Origin: Escherichia coli | GTDB lineage: Bacteria; Pseudomonadota; Gammaproteobacteria; Enterobacterales; Enterobacteriaceae | NCBI RefSeq assembly: GCF_050920415.1 | Contig: NZ_CP169309.1 | Length of the DNA: 64,000 bases | Reading direction: 5' to 3' (one strand) | Part shown: positions 2,021-59,089 of the stretch, one piece after another | How positions within the stretch are numbered: the first letter of the stretch is position 1 | Layout of the letters: the number at the start of each line of letters is the position of its first letter | Position numbers and translations under genes: made by a program | Notes under the pieces: model-generated | What the model saw: only the letters and a program-made list of their open reading frames with translations | What the model was told of the DNA's origin: nothing | Databases searched by the model: none

Positions 2021-2914
<894 letters not shown>

Positions 2915-3294: not shown

Positions 3295-4850
3295 TTATTT
3301 AATATCTTTCACGCGCATACCGTTGATCTGTTCATCCGTGATGGTATTACCCGCTTTAAAGTAATCAACCACCGCGTGATAAACGTAATAACCGCCCGTC
3401 GTATTGCGCGCTTTACCCTCGGTAAACGCGGTAAAACCATCTCCACCATCAGCAAGGAAACTCTGAGTGGCAATGTGGTAAACCGTCGCATCTTCAATCG
3501 GTTTGCCATTCAAAGTCAGTGAGATAACCCGCTGACCAACCGGCTTGCTGCTGTCGTACTTCATTTCCAGGCCTTTCGATACCTGTAAAACGCCATTACT
3601 TAAACTTGCGCCGTGTTCCATCAAACTGCGTAATTGTTTACCCGTGAGATCCATCGTCACCAGTTCGTTGGGGAACGGGAAGGTACTGATGACGCCACCC
3701 ATCGTAATTGCACCCGCCGGGATCTCATTGCGAATCCCGCCAGAGTTGGTTAACGCCAACTGGGTATTTTTACCCGCCGCTGCCAGCAAAGCGTCCGCCG
3801 CCAGGTTCCCGAGGGAAGCCGATTCACCATAGGCACGTTTTAATTCAACCGGCGATTGCGCCACCGTTTGCTGACTTCATCCAGCTTTTTGTTCCAACTA
3901 TCAATCACCTGTTTCGTTTGCGGATCGGGCTTCCACTCATCGGCGTAAAGGGTTTTAAGCTCGAAGTTTTTCACCGTAAAAGTGTGCGGCTTCTCTTTGT
4001 AGTCGAGAACCAGTTTACCCACATCAATCCCGCCGCTGTCAGTGGAGAGGATTAACGTATTGCCGACTTTAATCGGTTCCGGCGTACCCACATGTGCATG
4101 CCCGGTGATCAAAATATCCAGCCCTTTCACCTGACTTGCCGTCTGAATATCTTTATCCAGCGCGCGACGCACATCTGTGCCTCCCATACTGGACTGGCGG
4201 GCCGGAACACCTTCGTGGATCAGGGCAACGGTCAAATCAACCTTGCCTTTGAGTTCATCGATATAACGTTGTAGCCATTTAATTTCATCACGCGCCTCAA
4301 TACCCACTCGCGTTGCCGCAGATACCGTATCATTAAAGGCAAATACACCGTGCAAACCAATCACGCCAATTTTCACGCCGTCTTTTTCAATGATGGTATA
4401 GGGCTTATCCCAGAATGATTTACTGCTGTTCTGATAAAAAACATTACCCTGCACAATCGGGAATTTTGCCTGACTCAGCTGTAATAACGTATTGTCCCAG
4501 CCGTGATCAAATTCATGATTACCTATAGTGACCGCATCGAACGGCATGGTATTCATAATATCGATAATCGCCTTGCCTTTAGTCAGGCTGCTGATATACG
4601 GCCCGGTAAAATAGTCACCCGCATCAAAAAACCAGGTCGCTTTGTTTTTAGCTTTTTCTTGTTTAACAAGCGTAGTGATATTTGCCCAGCCGCCAATATC
4701 TCGTTTACCGTCAGCAATCCACGGCACTTTATAAGGCTCTACATGTGCATGGAGGTCGTTGGTATAAATGATGGTGACATCTTTGGCGCAAGCCCAAAAC
4801 GGCAGTGTTAATGCGATACCCGCAGCAAGCATTTTAATTTTCATAAACAA
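3295..4850 (-). pseudogene. 5'-nucleotidase / metallophosphatase family paralog disrupted by a frameshift
   Basis: Two overlapping minus-strand ORFs in different frames (3840-4850, 336 aa; 3295-3864, 189 aa). Together they align end to end with the intact paralog at 7922-9547 (N-part ...[15 protein letters not shown]; C-part [19 protein letters not shown]...). The frame break is near 3850-3865. Metallophosphatase motifs DxH, GDxxxG and GNHE are present. Confidence 0.75.
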
Positions 4851-4893
4851 TCCCTTCCAGTGAGATAAAGGATTGCTACATTACGTTCTGAAA

Positions 4894-4909
4894 GGCTTTT
4901 TTATGTGAG
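4894..4909. promoter_or_regulatory. perfect-consensus CRP-type site TGTGA-N6-TCACA in a divergent promoter region
   Basis: Sequence tTGTGAgaatacTCACAt sits between the divergent starts at 4850 (minus) and 4977 (plus). Both half-sites match the CRP consensus exactly. Confidence 0.55.
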
Positions 4910-4976
4910 AATACTCACATCCAGAGGCGATAACTGTAGGACAAAATCAACGACCTTATGAAATCGTTGGTGATAT

Positions 4977-6104
4977 ATGTCAAATCTGTTTGCGATTAAT
5001 GTCTGTAAAACGTTCGGTTGTCGAAATTTGGGATTGGCCTCATCGGAAGATTACAGTTGGCCAGACTATAAACTGGGTTTTCCGGCACTACACTGCCAGG
5101 CATGCGGAAGTTACCCCCCTTTGTTTGATGAACAACAATTTCGTGACTGGTTGTCAGTTCACATGACTACGTGTGCCATAGAAACAGGGCATTTTTGTCC
5201 ATCATGCTATTGTAAAGAAAAGATTTTTTATGGCCACAACCCGCAGGGAACACAACGCGTTCAATGCCGTTCATGCAAAAAAGTCTGGACTCCGAAACAG
5301 CAGCCAGCAAGAGAAATTACGTATCCCCAGTCCATTGAAACCGTTCAACTGTTCATGCCCTTTCAAGGAGCCAGCGCACTACAAAAGCTCTATGTTTTAG
5401 TCAGTCTTGACGCCACTCGTGGCAACATCCTTCATCTCTCCACGAATTATACGCAACATCAGACAGGAGACAGTCTGCGGTACAGTTACAGAGGCAATAC
5501 AGAACCAACTGAGCACCATAGCGATATTGTGCAGAGGGTAGATATGCGTGAAGCGCAATTCTTGCGCCGGAGCCAGTTCGATGAAATTCAGTATGGCAGT
5601 GCTGTGCTCAAGCGCAATGGCAAGGGAGCCATACTACGCCCGGTTATCACGGCACACGGGCATTTCAGAATACTGAAAATCCGCTTTCCACATGTCAAAA
5701 CGCATATCATTTCACACGAATGTTTTCTGAGAGGCGCAATTATTACAGCCTGGGCAGATCAGTTCCGCCAACAACAAGGCGAACTTTGGTTCGTAGAAGA
5801 AGAAATCAGCGACCGTAACGCTGATATTCCCTGGCATTTTCAGGGAACGACATACCATGGTTGGTGGCAAAATCAGTGGCAACGCTGGGGGCAGGGGAAT
5901 AACAGCAAGATGGTCTGCCTGCTCACAGGAGTCTCCTTAGAAAGGGGCGCAAATGTTTCTCTGGCAACCAGTCGTTGCTTTATCACATGGCTGACAGACC
6001 AACACGACTTTACCCAAAGCGCGTTATTATCCGCAGGTCGCGTAACGAAAATGCTGACCTCACTGGCGTTAAAATACAATGAATCGCTCAATCCATCTTG
6101 TTAG
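4977..6104 (+). CDS. hypothetical cysteine-rich protein (multiple CxxC pairs, possible zinc-ribbon N-terminus); function unknown
   Basis: 375-aa ORF with no signal peptide. N-terminal 100 residues carry C10/C15, C40/C43, C74/C77/C79 and C97/C100 (HCQACGS..., CPSCYC..., CRSCKKVW). The C-terminal part is Trp-rich. I do not recognise the family. Confidence 0.65.
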   Translation: MSNLFAINVCKTFGCRNLGLASSEDYSWPDYKLGFPALHCQACGSYPPLFDEQQFRDWLSVHMTTCAIETGHFCPSCYCKEKIFYGHNPQGTQRVQCRSCKKVWTPKQQPAREITYPQSIETVQLFMPFQGASALQKLYVLVSLDATRGNILHLSTNYTQHQTGDSLRYSYRGNTEPTEHHSDIVQRVDMREAQFLRRSQFDEIQYGSAVLKRNGKGAILRPVITAHGHFRILKIRFPHVKTHIISHECFLRGAIITAWADQFRQQQGELWFVEEEISDRNADIPWHFQGTTYHGWWQNQWQRWGQGNNSKMVCLLTGVSLERGANVSLATSRCFITWLTDQHDFTQSALLSAGRVTKMLTSLALKYNESLNPSC

Positions 6105-6222: not shown

Positions 6223-6238
6223 TGTTACTAAGATCACA
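6223..6238. promoter_or_regulatory. CRP-like site (TGTTA-N6-TCACA, one mismatch) upstream of the nucleotidase/tsx-like gene set
   Basis: tTGTTActaagaTCACAt lies about 95 bp upstream of the 6334 start in an AT-rich 229-bp leader. Confidence 0.3.
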
Positions 6239-6333
6239 TAATACTTTCCTGACCTATGCTTACATAAAAATAAGACACGGAGTTCCTTTTATTTAAATAA
6301 TTCAACCAATGTAACAACCCCTATCAAGGAGGG

Positions 6334-7887
6334 ATGATGAGAACTGTATTTACGACTTTATCAGTCATATTCAGCGTGATGTTTTCTCACAGTATACTAG
6401 CTCAGGACGTTACTATTTATTATACGAATGATATTCACGCACATGTCAATCCGGCAAAAATTCCCGCTGTTGATAAGAACAGACTTGTAGGTGGTATGGC
6501 TAATATCGCAGGCATCGTTAATGAAGCGAAGAAAAAAAACAAAGATGTCTTTTTCTTTGATGCAGGCGACTATTTTACCGGTCCGTATATCAGTACCCTG
6601 ACCAAAGGTGAAGCTATTATTGATATCATGAACACCATGCCCTTTGATGCGGTGTCCGTTGGTAATCACGAGTTCGATCACGGCGTGCCCAATATGGTAT
6701 CTCAGTTATCAAAAGCAAAATTCCCCATTCTGCTGGGAAATATTTACTACACCGATACAAATAAACCAGTTTGGGATCATCCGTGGACCATTATCGAAAA
6801 AGATGGTTTAAAGATTGGTGTGATTGGATTGCATGGTGCATTCGCTTTCTATGATACAGTCGCGGCAAAAGCACGTGAAGGCGTAGAAGCCAGAGACGAA
6901 ATTAAATATTTAAATAAAGCACTTGCAGAATTAAAAGGTAAAGTCGACATTACCGTTTTGCTAATTCACGAAGGTGTTCCGGCGCGTCAATCAAGCTTTG
7001 GTAGTAAAGATGTGGAGCGGCTACTACAGGCAGATATTGAGACAGCTAAAAAAGTGAATGGTGTTGATGTCTTAATTACCGGTCACGCACATGTCGGAAC
7101 ACCGCAACCAATAAAAGTTAATAACACATTAATTGTATCTACCGATGCATACGGCACCGACATCGGAAAACTTGTGCTTGATTACAATCCGAAAACAAAG
7201 AAAATTGATAGTTATAATGGTGAGTTAATCACCATCTTTGCAGATCAATTTAAACCTGACACCATCGTTCAAAATACTATCGATAAATGGAGCGTAAAAC
7301 TTAACAAAATAACACAGGAAGTTGTCGGCCATTCTCCCGTAGTTTTAACACGTGAGTATGGCAGTTCTTCTTCTACCGGTAACCTTATTCTGGATGCAAT
7401 GATGGAAAAAACACCTGATGCCATTGCCGGATTTCAAAATAGCGGTGGGATGCGAGCTGATTTTCCTAAAGGTGATATCACACTGGGAGATGTTATTAGC
7501 ACATTCCCCTTTAATAATGACCTCATCGAGATGGATTTGACGGGCCGCGATCTCAAATCGTTGATGACGCATGCAACCAATCTAACTAACGGTGTGTTAC
7601 AGGTTTCAAAAAGCGTTGCGGTTGTCTATGACAGCAAAAAACCACTCAACCAACGGTTAATCTCTTTCACCATTAACGGCAAACCCGTGGAAGATAATCA
7701 AACATATCGTATTGCCACGCACTCCTTTTGTGCCAGTGGTGGTGACGGTTTTGAAGCATTTTTGAATGGAAAAAATGTGAAGACGATACCGGGAACAACC
7801 TCGGCGGAATCAATCATCGATTATTTCAAAAATCATAAACCTGTCACCCCAGACTTAACTAAACGAGTCATGGACGTCGCCAAATAA
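6334..7887 (+). CDS. periplasmic bifunctional metallophosphatase / 5'-nucleotidase family protein (UshA-like)
   Basis: 517-aa ORF with a signal peptide (MMRTVFTTLSVIFSVMFSHSILA|QD), metallophosphatase motifs (TNDIHAH, FDAGDYFTG, GNHEFD) and a 5'-nucleotidase-type C-terminal domain. Strong Shine-Dalgarno (aaggaggg) precedes the start. Confidence 0.85.
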   Translation: MMRTVFTTLSVIFSVMFSHSILAQDVTIYYTNDIHAHVNPAKIPAVDKNRLVGGMANIAGIVNEAKKKNKDVFFFDAGDYFTGPYISTLTKGEAIIDIMNTMPFDAVSVGNHEFDHGVPNMVSQLSKAKFPILLGNIYYTDTNKPVWDHPWTIIEKDGLKIGVIGLHGAFAFYDTVAAKAREGVEARDEIKYLNKALAELKGKVDITVLLIHEGVPARQSSFGSKDVERLLQADIETAKKVNGVDVLITGHAHVGTPQPIKVNNTLIVSTDAYGTDIGKLVLDYNPKTKKIDSYNGELITIFADQFKPDTIVQNTIDKWSVKLNKITQEVVGHSPVVLTREYGSSSSTGNLILDAMMEKTPDAIAGFQNSGGMRADFPKGDITLGDVISTFPFNNDLIEMDLTGRDLKSLMTHATNLTNGVLQVSKSVAVVYDSKKPLNQRLISFTINGKPVEDNQTYRIATHSFCASGGDGFEAFLNGKNVKTIPGTTSAESIIDYFKNHKPVTPDLTKRVMDVAK

Positions 7888-7921: not shown

Positions 7922-9547
7922 ATGCGAATGAAAACAGTGCAGCGTACTTTACTTGCCGCAACATTGCTGACTATTTTTTCGGTCTCAGTCATGGCGCAGG
8001 ATGGCACGATTATTTATACAAATGATCTTCACACTCATGTGGATTCTTATAAAGTGCCGTATATCGCAGACGGAAAACGCGACATTGGCGGCTTTGCCAA
8101 TATATCTACTTTAGTAAAACAAGAGAAAGCGAAAAATAAAGCCACCTTTTATTTTGATGCTGGAGACTATTTCACCGGCCCTTATATCAGCAGTCTGACA
8201 AAGGGCGAAGCAATAATTGACATTATGAATACCATGCCTTTTGACGCAGTATCAATCGGCAATCATGAGTTTGACCATGGCTGGGATAATGCCCTGCGAC
8301 AATTAAGCAAAGCGAATTTTCCTGTTTTATTGGGCAATGTTTATCATAAAGAGAGTGAGAAACCCTTCTGGAACAAGCCCTACACCATCCTGGAAAAAGA
8401 TGGCATCAAGATTGGTATTATTGGGCTACACGGCGTATTTGCATTTAATGATACGGTCTCGGAGCTCTCTCTCCAGGGACTCGATAATGACAATAATAAC
8501 CGCTTTGATAAATCTTCCGAGACCCTTAAGAATCAGGGGATTGAAGCACGTGATGAAGTGAAGTATTTGCAGCATTATATCGACGAGTTACGTGATAAGG
8601 TTGACCTCACTGTGGCGCTGGTTCATGAAGGCGTTCCGGCGCGTCAGTCCAGCATTGGCAATACAGATGTTAGACGCGCTCTTGATAAAGATATTCAAAC
8701 CGCTAGCAAGGTGAAAGGATTGGATATTCTGATTACCGGGCATGCCCACGTCGGAACGCCAGAACCAATCAAAGTCGGCAACACCTTAATCCTTTCGACT
8801 GATAGTGGCGGTATCGATATTGGTAAATTAGTCCTTGATGTCAACCCTACAGCTCGTACCCATAAAATGAAGAGCTTTGAGCTGAAAACAGTTTATGCCG
8901 ATGAATGGATACCCGATCCAACGACACAAAAAGTTATCAATGGCTGGAATAAAAAACTGGCGGATATTGTACGCCAACCAGTGGGTGAATCATCGATTGT
9001 ATTAACTCGCGCCTATGGTGAGTCATCGCAACTAGGCAACCTGTTTACCGATGCAATGCTTGTCGCTGCTCCGACTGCACAGATTGCATTGATAAACTCC
9101 GGCAGCTTACGTGCGGATATAAATGCAGGCACGATTACCTTTGGCGACATTACCAGTACATTCCCCTTCAAGAATGAACTTACTGAAATGGATCTCAGCG
9201 GTAAGGATCTGCGTAACCTACTGGAACACGGGGCATCGCTTACCAATGGCATCCTGCAAATGTCAAAAGGCGCAGAAATGCGCTATACCCCGCAGAAACC
9301 AGTAGGTCAGCGCATAGTATCTTTTAAAATTAATGGTGAAGAGATCGTTGATACGAATATTTACCATGTTGCAACAACGACTTTCCTTGCACTGGGGGGC
9401 GATGGTTTTCTGGCATTCAAAGAAGGGAAAAATGTTCAGGTCCGCGCCAGAAATAACATGTCCGATGTCGTGATCGATTATTTGAAGAAAGGCCACAAGA
9501 TTACGCCTGCACAGGTAAATGAAATGCGGGTGGACGTTAGCAAATAA
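7922..9547 (+). CDS. periplasmic bifunctional metallophosphatase / 5'-nucleotidase family protein, second paralog
   Basis: 541-aa ORF with a signal peptide (…VSVMA|QDG) and the same motif set. It is about 80% identical by eye to the frameshifted copy at 3295-4850 and carries an extra low-complexity insert (LQGLDNDNNNRFDKSSETLKNQ). Confidence 0.85.
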   Translation: MRMKTVQRTLLAATLLTIFSVSVMAQDGTIIYTNDLHTHVDSYKVPYIADGKRDIGGFANISTLVKQEKAKNKATFYFDAGDYFTGPYISSLTKGEAIIDIMNTMPFDAVSIGNHEFDHGWDNALRQLSKANFPVLLGNVYHKESEKPFWNKPYTILEKDGIKIGIIGLHGVFAFNDTVSELSLQGLDNDNNNRFDKSSETLKNQGIEARDEVKYLQHYIDELRDKVDLTVALVHEGVPARQSSIGNTDVRRALDKDIQTASKVKGLDILITGHAHVGTPEPIKVGNTLILSTDSGGIDIGKLVLDVNPTARTHKMKSFELKTVYADEWIPDPTTQKVINGWNKKLADIVRQPVGESSIVLTRAYGESSQLGNLFTDAMLVAAPTAQIALINSGSLRADINAGTITFGDITSTFPFKNELTEMDLSGKDLRNLLEHGASLTNGILQMSKGAEMRYTPQKPVGQRIVSFKINGEEIVDTNIYHVATTTFLALGGDGFLAFKEGKNVQVRARNNMSDVVIDYLKKGHKITPAQVNEMRVDVSK

Positions 9548-9557
9548 TAAAAAATTA

Positions 9558-9592
9558 TAATGCCATTCATTCACTGAATGGCATTATTTTTC
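9558..9592 (+). terminator. rho-independent terminator-like hairpin after the second nucleotidase gene
   Basis: Inverted repeat aatgccattca / tgaatggcatt with loop ttcac, followed by a T-run (tattttt). Confidence 0.55.
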
Positions 9593-9624: not shown

Positions 9625-10485
9625 ATGTGTATAAAAAAGCACGGGATAGCTTTATCGATTCTATTAATACCTTGCATTGGAAACGCTCAGGAAATTAAAA
9701 GTGAGGAAGGCTGGTTACATCAAAGCTTGAATGTCATTGGTCGCACAGACTCTCGCTTTGGCCCAAGGCTGACTAACGACCTCTACCCTGAATATACTGT
9801 AGCAGGAAGAAAAGACTGGTTTGATTTTTATGGTTATGTTGATCTACCAAAATTCTTTGGCGTCGGCAGTCACTATGATGTTGGGATCTGGGATGAGGGC
9901 TCACCACTATTTACGGAAATAGAACCTCGGTTTTCCATTGACAAATTGACCGGATTAAATCTTGCGTTCGGCCCTTTTAAAGAATGGTTCATTGCAAACA
10001 ACTATGTCTATGATATGGGTGACAACCAGTCATCCCGGCAAAGTACATGGTATATGGGGCTTGGTACAGATATCGACACGGGTCTACCAATTAAGCTTTC
10101 TGCCAATATATACACCAAGTATCAGTGGCAAAACTATGGTGCCGCTAATGAAAATGAATGGGACGGATATCGATTCAAAATAAAATATAGCATTCCTCTT
10201 ACCCATTTATTCGGAGGGCGATTGGTATACAATAGTTTTACTAACTTTGATTTTGGCTCCGATCTTGCGGACAAATCACACAATAATAAACGAACCAGTA
10301 ATGCTATTGCTTCAAGCCATATCCTTTCCCTGCTATATGAACACTGGAAATTTGCATTTACACTACGTTATTTTCACAACGGTGGACAATGGAATGCTGG
10401 GGAGAAAGTTAACTTCGGAGATGGTCCATTTGAATTAAAAAACACAGGATGGGGAACCTATACTACTATTGGTTATCAATTTTAA
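9625..10485 (+). CDS. Tsx-family outer-membrane nucleoside-specific channel paralog
   Basis: 286-aa ORF with a signal peptide (…IGNA|QE). It shares long blocks with E. coli Tsx as I remember it ([90 protein letters not shown]) and ends in an aromatic residue. Confidence 0.85.
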
Positions 10486-10700: not shown

Positions 10701-13133
10701 CTACAACAACTGCGCCAGACGGTTAATATCCGACTGAATCGCCCCGGCGGTGACGTCGCGCCCTGCACCTGGCCCGCGGATCACCAGCGGGTTGTCGCGA
10801 TACCAGCGGCTTTCGATGGCAAAGACGTTATCGCACGGTAGTAGTGATGCCAGCGGATGGTCTTCTCGCACCGCTTCCACGCCTACTCGCGCTTTGCCGT
10901 TGGCATCGAAACGCGCCACGTAGCGCAACACCAGCCCCATTTCACGGGCCGCTTCCAACCGTTGTACCATCTGCTCATTAAGTTCATCGCCATTTTCAAA
11001 GAAATGGTCGATGCTTCCACCTTCGCAATGGGTTGGCACCAGTGATTCAACACGCACCTGGTCCGGTTCAATGTTGTAACCCGCTTCACGCGCCAGAATC
11101 ACCAGCTTGCGCATCACGTCTTTGCCGGAGAGGTCATCACGCGGGTCAGGTTCAGTTAAGCCCTGCTGCCACGCCTGATCCACCAGCTCGGTAAACGGCA
11201 CGCTACCGTCGAATTGCAGGAACAGCCAGGAGAGTGTGCCGGAGAAGATCCCGCTGATCGACAAAATAGTGTCGCCGCTGTCGATCAGATCGCGCACGGT
11301 ATGGTTGATCGGCAAACCTGCGCCGACGGTGGCGTTGTATAGCCAGTGACGCCCGGTTTTTTCGAACGCGTCGTGGATCTGGCGATATTTATTGCTGTCG
11401 CTCGCTCCCGCCAGTTTGTTGGCACTGATGACGTGGAAACCGTGGCTGGCGAAATCGAGGTATTGATCGGCCAGTTGCTGACTGGCGGTAACGTCCAGCA
11501 CCACTAAATCATCATACGGATGGGCACGCATCCACAGGAACAGCGACTCTTCATCCTGTTCGACGGCTTCATCATTAAAGAAGGCTAGCGCACGGCTGGC
11601 GTCCAGCCCGTCATAGCTCAACAGGCTGCGACGGCTGTCCACCACGCCTGCCAGCACAAATTCAAAGCCGGTGCGCGCCGAGAGCGTGCTCTGCTCACGG
11701 GCGAACAGTTCCAGCCAGCGGGAACCGATATTGCCCTTACCGAACAATACCAGGCCGATGCGTTTTTCTGCGCGGAAGACGGACTGATGCAGCCCCTGAA
11801 TCAGGCTTTCGGTCGGCCCGGTGCGCAGTACTGCCACCAGGCTGATGCCGTCATCGGACTGCCAGGTAAACTCGACCGGCTGGCCTTTCAGTTGCTGCCA
11901 GAAGCGGTGGCAATGCAGCGGGTTACGGGTGACGCCCGCCCCAACCATCGCCACCAGCGCCAGCCCCTGACGCAGGCGCAGTTCGCCAGGTAATCCTGCT
12001 TCGTCGAGGATTTTCAGCGCACTGTCGGCCACTTCCGAGGTGTAGCAAAATTGCAGCAACTGGCGATCGTTATGCACGCCAACCGCCAGTGGGCGCACCT
12101 GAGCACGTTTCAGGATTTGGTCGATCTCTTTATGCGCCAGTTTGAAATCCTGACTGGCGGGCACCTGAAACTCAATCAAACAGACATCATCGTGGCTGGT
12201 GACAATACGCGCGCCCGTACCGGAAGCCAGCACGCGTTCAATGCGCGTGGAACCTTGATCCGGTGTATAGCTACAGCGCAGCTGCAGGTCGATTTCACTG
12301 CCAGAAACTGGCTGTAAAGTACGCGCGTGCAACACTGGCGCGGCAAGACGCGCCAGTTCGCTGGCTTCATCAAGACGCAGCAATGGCAGCAGACAGGCAT
12401 CTTTCACTTTACGCGGGTCGGCGCTATATACCCCGGCGACGTCACTCCAGATGGTTACGCGGGAAACTCCCGCCAGCGCACCGATTTGTGTCGCGGAATA
12501 GTCGGAACCGTTACGCCCCAGCAGCACCGTTTCACCGGCGTTGTTACGGCTGATAAACCCGGTCACCACCAGACGTTTGCCCGGATGTTGTACCAGTAGC
12601 TGTTGCAGCAACGGGTAAGAAAGCCCTTCATCAACCTGCGGCTGCGCGGCGCGTTCAGCGCGTAAAAACTCGCGGGCATCAAGCCAGGCCGCTGGCAATC
12701 CTTGTTGATTAAGTACCGCAGACATCAGGCGCGCCGACCACACTTCACCGTGGCCCACCACTTCCGCATACACCGCATCGTTAATACCGCTGTCGAGCAG
12801 CGCCGCCAGGCGTTCCAGATCGCTGACAAAAGCGCTAATGAGGCTATCGGCTTCTTCAGCGGGTAGCAGGCCGCTAATCAGATCGCACTGATAACGACGT
12901 AGCGTTTGTTGAACCTGATGCGCAGAGAGACGATCGGTCTGGCTTAGTTTCAACCAGTTAATCAACTGGTTAGTGGTGCTACCGGCGGCGGAAACCACCA
13001 TCATATCGTCAGGCTGAGAGTACTCCGCCATAATGCCCGCGACACGCAAATAACACTTCACATCAGCCAGACTACTGCCACCAAATTTATGCAGTTGACG
13101 ACCTTTCGCCCCTGCCTGCGCAATCACACTCAT
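10701..13133 (-). CDS. metL: bifunctional aspartokinase II / homoserine dehydrogenase II
   Basis: 810-aa ORF MSVIAQAGAKGRQLHKFGGSSLADVKCYLRVAGIMAEYS... recognised as MetL. Confidence 0.96.
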   Translation of the reverse strand: MSVIAQAGAKGRQLHKFGGSSLADVKCYLRVAGIMAEYSQPDDMMVVSAAGSTTNQLINWLKLSQTDRLSAHQVQQTLRRYQCDLISGLLPAEEADSLISAFVSDLERLAALLDSGINDAVYAEVVGHGEVWSARLMSAVLNQQGLPAAWLDAREFLRAERAAQPQVDEGLSYPLLQQLLVQHPGKRLVVTGFISRNNAGETVLLGRNGSDYSATQIGALAGVSRVTIWSDVAGVYSADPRKVKDACLLPLLRLDEASELARLAAPVLHARTLQPVSGSEIDLQLRCSYTPDQGSTRIERVLASGTGARIVTSHDDVCLIEFQVPASQDFKLAHKEIDQILKRAQVRPLAVGVHNDRQLLQFCYTSEVADSALKILDEAGLPGELRLRQGLALVAMVGAGVTRNPLHCHRFWQQLKGQPVEFTWQSDDGISLVAVLRTGPTESLIQGLHQSVFRAEKRIGLVLFGKGNIGSRWLELFAREQSTLSARTGFEFVLAGVVDSRRSLLSYDGLDASRALAFFNDEAVEQDEESLFLWMRAHPYDDLVVLDVTASQQLADQYLDFASHGFHVISANKLAGASDSNKYRQIHDAFEKTGRHWLYNATVGAGLPINHTVRDLIDSGDTILSISGIFSGTLSWLFLQFDGSVPFTELVDQAWQQGLTEPDPRDDLSGKDVMRKLVILAREAGYNIEPDQVRVESLVPTHCEGGSIDHFFENGDELNEQMVQRLEAAREMGLVLRYVARFDANGKARVGVEAVREDHPLASLLPCDNVFAIESRWYRDNPLVIRGPGAGRDVTAGAIQSDINRLAQLL

Positions 13134-18387: not shown

Positions 18388-19413
18388 GTGAAAGCGAAGA
18401 AGCAGGAAACTGCCGCGACCATGAAAGACGTTGCCCTGAAGGCAAAAGTCTCTACAGCGACCGTCTCCCGAGCATTAATGAATCCCGATAAAGTCTCCCA
18501 GGCCACCCGTAATCGGGTTGAAAAAGCGGCCCGGGAAGTAGGTTATTTGCCGCAGCCTATGGGGCGCAACGTCAAACGTAATGAATCCCGCACCATTCTG
18601 GTGATTGTCCCGGATATCTGCGATCCCTTCTTTAGCGAAATTATTCGCGGTATCGAAGTTACGGCGGCAAATCACGGATATCTGGTGCTGATTGGCGACT
18701 GTGCGCATCAAAATCAGCAGGAAAAAACCTTTATCGATTTGATTATCACCAAGCAAATTGATGGCATGTTGCTGCTGGGTTCAAGGCTGCCGTTTGATGC
18801 CAGCATTGAGGAACAGCGTAATCTGCCGCCGATGGTGATGGCGAACGAATTTGCGCCGGAACTGGAGCTGCCTACAGTTCATATCGACAATCTGACCGCG
18901 GCATTTGATGCAGTAAATTATTTATATGAGCAAGGTCATAAACGGATTGGCTGTATAGCCGGTCCCGAAGAGATGCCGCTGTGTCACTACCGCCTGCAAG
19001 GCTACGTTCAGGCGCTGCGTCGCTGCGGCATTATGGTTGATCCGCAATACATCGCCCGGGGCGACTTCTCCTTTGAAGCCGGAAGCAACGCGATGCAACA
19101 GCTGCTTGCTCTTCCGCAACCGCCTACTGCTGTCTTCTGCCATAGCGATGTAATGGCGCTCGGCGCACTTTCTCAGGCAAAACGCCAGGGGCTGAAAGTC
19201 CCGGATGATCTATCCATAATCGGTTTTGATAACATCGACCTGACGCAATTTTGTGATCCGCCGCTGACAACCATCGCGCAGCCGCGTTACGAAATCGGTC
19301 GGGAAGCTATGCTGTTATTGCTTGATCAAATGCAGGGGCAACACGTTGGCAGTGGCTCTCGTTTAATGGACTGCGAACTTATCATCCGGGGATCAACACG
19401 CGCGTTACCTTAA
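18388..19413 (+). CDS. cytR: LacI-family transcriptional repressor CytR
   Basis: Track ORF starts at GTG 18382 (MSVKAKK...); the K-12 protein as I remember it starts two codons later (MKAKKQETAATMKDVALKAKVSTATVSRALMNPDK...). Confidence 0.9.
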   Translation: MKAKKQETAATMKDVALKAKVSTATVSRALMNPDKVSQATRNRVEKAAREVGYLPQPMGRNVKRNESRTILVIVPDICDPFFSEIIRGIEVTAANHGYLVLIGDCAHQNQQEKTFIDLIITKQIDGMLLLGSRLPFDASIEEQRNLPPMVMANEFAPELELPTVHIDNLTAAFDAVNYLYEQGHKRIGCIAGPEEMPLCHYRLQGYVQALRRCGIMVDPQYIARGDFSFEAGSNAMQQLLALPQPPTAVFCHSDVMALGALSQAKRQGLKVPDDLSIIGFDNIDLTQFCDPPLTTIAQPRYEIGREAMLLLLDQMQGQHVGSGSRLMDCELIIRGSTRALP

Positions 19414-42306: not shown

Positions 42307-42425
42307 TTATCGGATAATTGTTTTTATTTTGAAATTGATCACAAAAAAACCACCGCCGTTGGCGATGGTTCATTTTTTAAGCTGATATGCGGCGTAAACG
42401 CCTCATTGCAGCAGGCGGCAAATGA

Positions 42426-43140: not shown

Positions 43141-43330
43141 ATGCCGTACTTTTCGTAAGGGTATGGTTTTGCAGGAAAATGCCCGAGATGTGAAGCAAAT
43201 CACCCACTTAATGCCGTGATTGCCAGTAAATCGACAACGGCGGCAACAGGCGAAAGGTTAATCGACAGCACGATTTTTACACTCATCTCGTCGGAGATGT
43301 GACGCGACGAAAAATGATGAGGATAAGAAG

Positions 43331-46283: not shown

Positions 46284-46299
46284 TGTGAACATCATCACG
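46284..46299. promoter_or_regulatory. CRP site in the rhaSR / rhaBAD divergent control region
   Basis: TGTGAacatcaTCACG matches the CRP consensus. CRP activation of the rha promoters is established. Confidence 0.5.
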
Positions 46300-58255: not shown

Positions 58256-59089
58256 TTAATTACTCAAACGCTGCGGATGGGTATAAACCGTTGCCCGACC
58301 CGGCTTACAAAAGCCCACCAGCGTCAAATTACAGCGCTCAGCCACTTCTACGGCAAGCGTGGTCGCGGCAGACACCGCAAACAAAATTTCTACGCCGCAC
58401 ATCGCTGACTTTTGCACCATTTCATAACTGGCACGACTGGAAACCAGCACCGCACCTTGCTGCCAGCTTTCCCCTTCTTGTGACCGGCGGCCTAACAGTT
58501 TATCCAGCGCCACATGGCGACCCACGTCTTCATGCCCGCCTACCAGTTCGCCAGATGGCAACATCCAGGCAGCGGCGTGAGTACAACCAGTCAGTTGCCC
58601 CACTGGCTGGAAATCATTGAGATGGCGTAATGCATCATCCAGTTTGTTGAGATCAAATGTCTGAGTGAACGGCAGCGGCTGCACCGGTTTACCGATGTCA
58701 TTAAGTTGCTCCACGCCGCACACGCCACATCCCGTACGTCCCGCCAGTGCCCGACGACGCTCCTTCAACCCCATAAAGCGGCGGCTGGAAAGCTCAATTT
58801 GCACTTCCAGACCATTACAGGAAGGAACGACATCCATACCGAAGATATCGCGCGGACTTTCGATAATCCCCTCGGAAAGCGAAAAACCGAGCGCAAAGTA
58901 TTCAAGGTCTTTGGGCGACGCCATCATCACCACATGCGAAATGCCGTTGTAGACCAGCGCAACGGGAACCTCTTCCGCCACCTCATCTAACCGTGGGTGT
59001 TGTAAATCGTCACGCCGCCATAACTCAATTTGACGAACACCTGTGACATTTGTCACATTTTTGATTTCTTTTTGCTGTGTTTTTTTCAC
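58256..59089 (-). CDS. fdhD: formate dehydrogenase sulfurtransferase / accessory protein FdhD
   Basis: 277-aa [52 protein letters not shown]... recognised as FdhD. Confidence 0.95.

Follow-up and report, generated by a model that had tools for sequence, protein, structure and literature searches.

We focused on a 132-bp gap between two divergent genes in a stretch of 64,000 nucleotides from Escherichia coli (contig NZ_CP169309.1 of assembly GCF_050920415.1; this whole stretch is referred to as the window here). The gap (4845-4976) separates the ATG of a periplasmic nucleotidase gene (nuc1; 4844, minus strand) from that of an open reading frame (ORF) for a cysteine-rich, transposase-like protein (Cys-rich ORF; 4977, plus strand), and it contains a palindrome, TGTGAgaatacTCACA, that matches the binding core of the cyclic AMP (cAMP) receptor protein, CRP. 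Judging from sequence and conservation, this palindrome is probably a functional cAMP-CRP site, at which one dimer would drive two divergent class II promoters. The site itself is very probably real, but it would be an ordinary catabolite-control switch. The features concerned are the following.

4904-4919 (22-bp site 4901-4922; center 4911.5), no strand: CRP core site, recognized by its exact core, its matrix score and its conservation.
3295-4844, minus strand: nuc1, a periplasmic bifunctional metallophosphatase/5'-nucleotidase gene, here a pseudogene, with NCBIfam hits to UshA/NadN/CpdB-type models and labeled "frameshifted" by the Prokaryotic Genome Annotation Pipeline (PGAP).
4977-6104, plus strand: Cys-rich ORF of 375 amino acids, annotated only as "cytoplasmic protein", with IS1/IS1595-type zinc ribbon(s) and an RNase H-like transposase/integrase fold.

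The core is made up of TGTGA at 4904-4908, the spacer gaatac at 4909-4914 and TCACA at 4915-4919, with 10 of 10 core positions matching and A, not T, preceding TGTGA (ttaTGTGAgaatacTCACAtcc). The initial annotation had described two exact half-sites with 6-bp spacing, which stands, but had placed them at 4894-4909, whereas the true position lies 10 bp to the right. It had also described the site as centered between the divergent genes, in agreement with our distances of 65.5 bp from center to the ATG at 4977 and 67.5 bp to the ATG at 4844. Of the gene starts given there, the one at 4977 holds; for the nucleotidase the annotated ATG is at 4844, and the 4850 given earlier is an upstream in-frame TTG of the longest ORF.

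An exact TGTGAN6TCACA core is rare. Two were observed in the window versus 0.02 expected, and none of 100 dinucleotide shuffles reached two; for the 132-bp region, our own arithmetic gives an expectation of ∼1e-4. Only 1 of 68 RegulonDB CRP sites has a perfect core (Table S4, PMC3105977), bearing out the earlier remark that exact-consensus sites are uncommon. Within the TGTGA-N6-TCACA core, G at core position 4 and C at position 13 have been reported as most critical (PMC3105977), and the focal core carries both (G4907 and C4916). The other exact core in the window, at 59042-59057 (TGTGACATTTGTCACA), has the top score of the window (13.7 bits) and sits within the first codons of annotated fdhD (58256-59089, minus strand), 226 to 241 bp upstream of fdoG (59283).

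Scoring with a CRP position weight matrix had been proposed in the initial annotation. On a 16-mer matrix derived from RegulonDB, the site at 4904-4919 reached 10.9 bits, which ranks 5th in the window and lies above 93% of the 68 training sites (median, 6.8 bits; maximum, 14.5 bits). On an approximate 22-mer matrix of classical sites it scored 12.0 bits and ranked 11th, with training scores from 3.5 to 22 bits that were, with one exception, all at least 11.6. Both matrices recovered known CRP targets in the window that served as positive controls, namely, rhaS-rhaB at 46284, rhaT-sodA at 43189 and, 117 bp upstream of its gene, a cytR site (PMC3105977). Since the spacer and the outer flanks of the focal site deviate from consensus, it is good rather than maximal by score. 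A further strong CRP-like site of 13.6 bits (TTTGAAATTGATCACA, 42328-42343) was seen in the kdgT-sodA interval, ∼170 bp upstream of kdgT.

To gain an idea about the conservation of the site, we aligned the intergenic region of eight E. coli alleles, which are 87 to 100% identical. Both half-sites (TTTATGTGAGA and TCACATCC) are invariant among them, whereas variation is seen at three of the six spacer positions and in the blocks to the immediate left (4895-4899) and right (4923-4938). A scan with the Cys-rich ORF protein, using one genome per species, extended the comparison to 30 loci with 38 to 80% protein identity from Citrobacter (many species), Klebsiella, Enterobacter, Kluyvera, Pluralibacter, Pseudocitrobacter, Silvania, Superficieibacter, Escherichia albertii, E. 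whittamii and Salmonella enterica subsp. arizonae. In every locus with available upstream sequence a nucleotidase gene is divergently adjacent, and the gap from start codon to start codon is 131 to 138 bp wherever both could be placed. These nuc1 orthologues share 88 to 99% amino acid identity in most loci and 81% in the most divergent one, L037 (best tblastn segment, N-terminal 330 residues). The best CRP matrix match lies 64.5 to 72.5 bp from the ATG of the Cys-rich ORF homologue in 29 of the 30 loci, mostly at 65.5 or 66.5 bp, the sole exception being a truncated S. arizonae copy.

To examine the position-specific pattern, we aligned 26 distinct orthologous intergenic sequences, which represent about ten genera. 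The ten half-site positions have a mean entropy per column of 0.15 bit, compared with 1.21 in the spacer, 1.34 in the 22 bp that follow and 0.70 over the entire region. Neither G4907 nor C4916 varies (26/26), and the half-site variants seen are TGCGA, TGTGC, CGTGC and TCACG. Indels are confined to the nucleotidase leader (4847-4857) and to the few bases directly preceding the ATG of the ORF, and no indel was found in this alignment from 4858 to about 4973. Even among related sequences, such contrast between adjacent columns is the pattern expected of a CRP site.

Two readings of the palindrome other than a CRP site have to be set against this pattern. Short palindromes arise randomly, and a functionless chance palindrome would agree with the nonconsensus spacer and flanks and with the rank of 11 on the 22-mer matrix. 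We strongly disfavor this explanation, given the expectations for an exact core in the window and in the gap and the deep, position-specific conservation in a variable background. The palindrome could also be the operator of another protein that happens to resemble a CRP site. The InsA-type zinc ribbon domain of IS1 binds DNA, and the protein encoded next to the palindrome, which has a ribbon of this type, might bind to its own promoter as InsA does; in addition, the left arm with its flank (TTATGTGAG) is conserved beyond the five core bases. However, the conserved positions are exactly the CRP half-sites at 6-bp spacing, variants such as TGCGA and TGTGC are tolerated in known CRP sites, and CRP is universal in these genera. 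Moreover, the intergenic regions of distant homologues of the ORF carry CRP-like sites in unrelated flanks with no other shared k-mer, and we consider an operator of this kind very improbable.

If the palindrome is a CRP site, its position relative to the two genes would place it in two candidate promoters, whose -10 hexamers we propose from conservation as follows.

4942-4947, plus strand: CAAAAT, candidate -10 hexamer of the Cys-rich ORF promoter, nearly invariant in the 26 sequences (A4943 invariant, T4947 conserved).
4883 to 4878, minus strand: TAATGT, candidate -10 hexamer of the nucleotidase promoter, with T-A-A-n-n-T conservation (entropy digits 1, 0, 0, 7, 5, 1).

The 22 bp between the CRP site and CAAAAT are the most variable sequence of the region in the 26 sequences, and their length is constant. 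Because this stretch varies in sequence but never in length, the constraint on it appears to be one of spacing, as expected for promoter geometry. The hexamers lie 28.5 bp (minus side) and 30.5 bp (plus side) from the CRP center, and the conservation of both is of the TAnnnT type. With the hexamers taken as -12 to -7, CRP would be centered at about -42.5 relative to the Cys-rich ORF start and at about -40.5 relative to the nucleotidase start. At class II promoters such as galP1, CRP likewise overlaps the place of the -35 element, there is no -35 match and a -10-like hexamer follows at a similar distance from the center; the geometry proposed here differs in being derived from conserved hexamers and in being 1 bp off the canonical position on each side. 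The RegulonDB table lists galETKM at -41.5 and several activators at -40.5 or -42.5 (PMC3105977). A consensus scan of 4700-5100 found no full sigma-70 promoter (0 found, 1.0 expected), and the positions where -35 elements would fall read ATCCAG and CACATA, so that neither promoter has a recognizable -35. This null result fits activator dependence, for which it is weak support.

The arrangement has natural precedents. A single CRP site for a divergent promoter pair is documented in 11 natural cases, and rhaT-sodA, xylAB-xylFGHR, araBAD-araC and glpEGR-glpD resemble the present locus in having one dimer in a short divergent region, roughly equidistant from both transcription units (PMC3105977). 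The rhaT-sodA example lies in the same window and was found by the same matrix. Compared with these, the control region described here is unusually compact (132 bp), both promoters would be of class II, and one partner gene is transposase-like rather than catabolic or regulatory. The positions that we propose are compatible with activation on both sides. One CRP site serving divergent promoters was reportedly also examined in a model study by El-Robh and Busby in 2002 (cited in PMC3105977).

We also considered that CRP binds here but with another geometry, activating one promoter only or acting from a class I or repressing position on the other, in which case the symmetry with respect to the start codons would be incidental. 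The unequal distances from center to hexamer would agree with this, and for many divergent pairs a response to CRP is known for just one of the promoters (PMC3105977). Yet both hexamers and both spacings are kept without a single indel over about ten genera, which is hard to explain if control were one-sided, and class I spacing (-61.5) would put either start inside the start codon or within ∼4 nucleotides of it. We therefore regard these alternative geometries as rather unlikely, and one dimer acting on two class II promoters as the preferred reading.

According to this model, cAMP-CRP would bind at 4904-4919, in the center of a compact bidirectional control region, and the single dimer would activate both back-to-back class II promoters when glucose is absent. 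The output would be a catabolite-controlled periplasmic 5'-nucleotidase that scavenges external nucleotides, together with a transposase-derived cytoplasmic protein. In the present strain nuc1 is broken by a 4-nucleotide deletion, and only the plus-strand output could yield a full-length protein. The flanking and downstream genes encode nucleotidases and a Tsx-like channel, a biology that fits CRP control. What the sequences themselves show is the motif with its rarity, its score and its deep conservation in position, the constant spacing and the lack of -35 elements. We infer from these that CRP occupies the site, that transcription starts at two points, that CRP activates and does not repress, and that it acts on both sides.

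Several points weigh against this model. The 16-mer matrix was built from the first 68 RegulonDB entries of a published table (Table S4, PMC3105977), and the 22-mer matrix, built from classical sites, is approximate. The -10 hexamers were assigned from conservation, and with each of them CRP is displaced by 1 bp from the canonical -41.5. As the orthologues are related by descent, the conservation counts are not independent, and our literature searches, on the locus and on CRP in uropathogenic strains, found no transcription start map, footprint, chromatin immunoprecipitation or expression data for this locus. Finally, G4909, the base after TGTGA, is kept in 25 of 26 sequences, and the conservation of this base and of a block at 4881-4894 exceeds what CRP binding or a promoter spacer would demand, suggesting that another factor may share the DNA. 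The block is one of two conserved elements outside the CRP site.

4881-4894, no strand: nearly invariant block TTACGTTCTGAAAG, overlapping the minus-strand -10 hexamer and the 11 bp upstream of that hexamer.
4948-4970, plus strand: inverted repeat CAACGA-N10-TCGTTG (4948-4969), whose right arm (AAATCGTTGGT), close before the ATG, is nearly invariant.

The pairs of the inverted repeat are kept in 22 to 26 of the 26 sequences, mostly through invariance or through transitions compatible with wobble pairing, and no compensatory double changes were seen in these hairpin pairs. Its left arm would fall at or upstream of the proposed transcription start. The repeat may serve as a hairpin in the leader, as an operator or as a component of the ribosome-binding region. 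As neither CRP nor the -10 hexamers explain these two elements, they may be sites of a second, specific factor. Comparison by eye with the Pho box, PurR, DeoR, LacI-type, sigma-54 and IHF consensus sequences gives no convincing match to the conserved blocks, and we do not count this as evidence.

The genes around the site belong to a group of five between metF (2021-2911, minus strand) and metL (10701-13133, minus strand). Apart from nuc1 and the Cys-rich ORF, this group comprises the downstream genes of what we call the long form.

6337-7887, plus strand: nucleotidase 2 (nuc2), long-form downstream gene.
7928-9547, plus strand: nucleotidase 3, long-form downstream gene.
9625-10485, plus strand: Tsx-like nucleoside channel, long-form downstream gene.

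Across the 2.4 kb that we queried, the window is 100% identical to E. coli MFDS1022581. The initial annotation had called the nucleotidase frameshifted, and alignment with the intact UTI89 and M00057 alleles confirms a deletion of GGTG (4 nucleotides) at 3873/3874; PGAP also labels the gene "frameshifted" in the 100%-identical genome. A frameshifted copy occurs in at least one further E. coli strain (E686). The pair of nuc1 and the Cys-rich ORF is found in 1,843 of 5,426 complete E. coli genomes, i.e., it is absent from about two-thirds, and the five-gene long form is found in 658 of the 5,426, including UTI89, Nissle 1917, 83972, IHE3034 and ATCC 25922. Other strains, e.g., M00057, have a two-gene form in which the ORF abuts metL.

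The pair had previously been described as part of an island, a view that its distribution does not support. Most loci of Citrobacter, Klebsiella, Kluyvera and relatives, including Pseudocitrobacter, Superficieibacter and S. arizonae, likewise have the pair between metF and metL. Given this shared position in many genera, the two-gene core is best read as a syntenic module of long standing in enterobacteria rather than as an island recently gained by E. coli, with metF-metL as its ancestral home. Its absence from most E. coli would then reflect loss. The three downstream genes (two nucleotidases and the tsx-like gene) look like a lineage-specific addition. In the 658 E. coli genomes with the long form, among them the B2 strains UTI89 and Nissle, the extra genes stand after the Cys-rich ORF. 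In Enterobacter and in second copies of some Escherichia and Citrobacter (loci L017, L019, L020, L033, L035 and L039), extra nucleotidase and tsx-like genes are instead found on the minus side, downstream of nuc1, where the CRP-controlled promoter could drive them as an operon. The module is present twice in some genomes. One locus, L009 from E. coli IH5 (NZ_CP168949.1, 5050205-5056458), has a Cys-rich ORF fragment amid partial casA, acfD, capsid genes and aadA5; this patchwork of gene fragments looks like a chimeric or misassembled region and was ignored.

Regarding the tsx-like gene, PGAP labels it "missing C-terminus" (partial) in the identical genome (locus L001, 11826-12671); the ORF in the window has 286 amino acids, as does its intact counterpart in UTI89, and its match to the Tsx model is full-length. 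Between nucleotidase 3 and the tsx-like gene, at 9563-9590, there is a terminator-like hairpin (aatgccattcattcactgaatggcatt, with a T run behind it), which suggests that the tsx-like gene may have its own promoter. The only literature on the locus that we found compares extraintestinal pathogenic strains and describes it as genomic region GR31 (metL..metF); nucleoside processing is proposed there and regulation is not mentioned.

Upstream of nuc2 there is a second intergenic CRP-like site.

6223-6238 (center 6230.5), no strand: second CRP-like site TGTTActaagaTCACA, upstream of nucleotidase 2; scores of 11.3 bits (16-mer matrix, rank 3 in the window) and 15.5 bits (22-mer matrix).

On the 16-mer matrix this site outscores the focal one (11.3 versus 10.9 bits). 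Its core is identical in the ∼90%-identical UTI89 allele, which is thin evidence of conservation, as two alleles were compared. An extended -10-like sequence, TGcTTACAT at 6257-6265, would place CRP at -41.5, i.e., at class II spacing. These features suggest that the downstream nucleotidase and Tsx genes may have their own catabolite control.

Given the nucleoside theme of the locus, co-regulation by CRP and CytR had been put forward in the initial annotation, with reference to cytR in the same window; this gene is indeed present (18388-19413), 13.5 kb distant. CytR next to CRP would act as an antiactivator in the absence of cytidine. In E. coli K-12, deo, udp, cdd, tsx, nupC and nupG are under CRP/CytR control, and CytR recognizes octamers of GTTGCATT or GTTRCATT type that are arranged either as inverted repeats at variable distance or as direct repeats separated by 1 bp, in most cases with a CRP site on each side; binding to the direct arrangement is also seen in systematic evolution of ligands by exponential enrichment (PMC3454398). 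The locus resembles the K-12 promoters deoP2, tsxP2, cdd, udp, nupG, nupC and cytR in its theme of nucleoside and nucleotide scavenging and in having a Tsx-type channel in the cluster. It differs from the CytR regulon in that its enzymes are periplasmic nucleotidases instead of the cytoplasmic deo, udp and cdd products.

The flank search for CytR half-sites that had been proposed found no octamer with at most one mismatch at 4845-4976, and over the whole window such octamers are not above chance (57 observed versus 89 expected). Most cassettes have two CRP sites flanking the CytR operator, whereas the focal region has one conserved CRP site. The CRP sites of CytR cassettes are about 52 to 53 bp apart. 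A candidate second site for such a tandem cassette, at 4969-4984 (GGTGATATATGTCAAA, 11.0 bits), overlaps the start codon of the ORF at a distance of 65 bp and is lost in most orthologues (TCAAA to TCGAC); this allele-specific hit was rejected as probably a chance match. A direct octamer pair with a 1-bp spacer, GTTACATT-g-GTTGAATT, does occur in the second intergenic region (6299-6315, minus strand), just upstream of the nuc2 ribosome-binding site, and both octamers are kept in UTI89 with a different spacer base. Because it lies 76 bp from the nearest CRP-like center, which is not the usual cassette geometry, we consider it only a lead. The proximity of cytR is coincidental and carries no information, since cytR is a core gene and metF-metL the ancestral home of the module. 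Of the proposed CRP/CytR control, the CRP part has strong comparative support, with half-sites fixed in 29 of the 30 loci from about ten genera, and the CytR part is not supported for this promoter and is very improbable.

The divergent partner of the nucleotidase deserves attention in its own right. The Cys-rich ORF shares with IS1/IS1595-type transposases an N-terminal InsA-type zinc ribbon and an RNase H-like catalytic-core fold. Searches against PDB sequences and PHROGs gave nothing beyond the zinc ribbon, and no Pfam transposase catalytic domain was detected. Among 48 family members C97, C100, R198 and H229 are invariant, and an acidic residue (D/E) is found at position 248 in 48/48, at position 202 in 41/48 and at position 145, the first of the acidic positions, in only 35/48. 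No acidic residue follows the fourth strand, where the second catalytic Asp is expected, as judged from secondary-structure elements and not from structural superposition. An intact catalytic D, D, E triad is doubtful, because acidic residues are universal only at position 248. Unlike IS1/IS1595 transposase genes, the Cys-rich ORF gene is single copy, syntenic across genera and without convincing terminal repeats, and its family is associated with nucleoside catabolic operons, not mobile DNA.

The transposase fold raises the question of whether the palindrome could be left over from the terminal inverted repeat of an insertion sequence in which the ORF once resided. A 16-nucleotide stretch at 4898-4913 is in fact 88% complementary to 6255-6270 on the far side of the ORF. 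However, a 14/16 match is at about chance level in 1.6 kb of AT-rich DNA (by our own estimate ∼0.3 expected, with seven comparable pairs observed), the two-gene form runs straight into metL and leaves no room for a right end, and the gene is syntenic, in single copy and shares its upstream region with the nucleotidase promoter at fixed spacing. A transposon origin of the palindrome is therefore extremely improbable.

When we inspected the genetic neighborhood of distant homologues (29 to 34% identity), several contexts placed them beside nucleoside or nucleotide genes. These neighbors are (i) a porin, a class B acid phosphatase and a class II cAMP phosphodiesterase; (ii) NupC and a nucleoside phosphorylase; (iii) phosphopentomutase (DeoB), a phosphorylase (PNP) and a NupG-like symporter; (iv) a transaldolase-like protein, adenosine deaminase (Add), DeoC and thymidine phosphorylase (DeoA), with TatD and a Bmp-type ATP-binding cassette transporter on the other side; (v) a 5'-nucleotidase, divergent or in an operon; and (vi) NupC, DeoC and DeoA. 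The remaining context consists of Tsx, a sulfatase and a sulfatase maturase. Counting the window and homologues down to 29% identity, eight of nine informative contexts are directly beside nucleoside or nucleotide genes; this count leaves out three uninformative look-ups (a short contig without a neighbor, a short contig with only a radical S-adenosylmethionine/SPASM gene and a protein not on record). The intergenic regions of the distant loci carry CRP-like sites of 9.0 to 11.8 bits at, by a rough estimate, about ten times the window-wide density, although these regions are AT-rich. Upstream of the homologues, k-mer enrichment was no better than in shuffles, and no shared operator motif was found.

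Our literature search found no paper on this family. The most economical reading, judged from gene neighborhood only, is a domesticated transposase-derived protein that is tied to nucleoside scavenging and is possibly a regulator. Carried further on the same neighborhood evidence, this leads to a tentative proposal, which we hold to be possible although not likely, of an ancient two-gene regulatory module. CRP would provide the global input, and the degenerate-triad, IS1-like protein would be the pathway-specific DNA-binding regulator of nucleotide and nucleoside scavenging operons in Enterobacterales and related gammaproteobacteria. Under such a proposal, TTACGTTCTGAAAG (4881-4894) and CAACGA-N10-TCGTTG (4948-4969) would be operators of the Cys-rich ORF protein.

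Taken as a CRP site, the palindrome is one more probable target of a well-known kind, in an accessory nucleotide-scavenging cluster that is present in a third of complete E. coli genomes, with UTI89, Nissle 1917, 83972 and ATCC 25922 among the carriers, and in many Citrobacter, Klebsiella and Enterobacter. It predicts that the periplasmic nucleotidases would be made only when preferred sugars are absent, which would be relevant to growth on host or environmental nucleotides and is not surprising. The bidirectional geometry and the unexplained conserved blocks add a little interest: the locus offers a clean natural case in which a single CRP dimer may drive two class II promoters 132 bp apart, an arrangement that has so far been described mainly for model constructs and a few K-12 loci. 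More novel is the transposase-like partner family, which might repay experimental work. The site marks a conserved divergent pairing of nucleoside and nucleotide catabolic operons with an uncharacterized transposase-derived family, and this pairing offers a testable case for a domesticated transposase in bacterial metabolic regulation, which would be the larger, if indirect, potential value of the locus.

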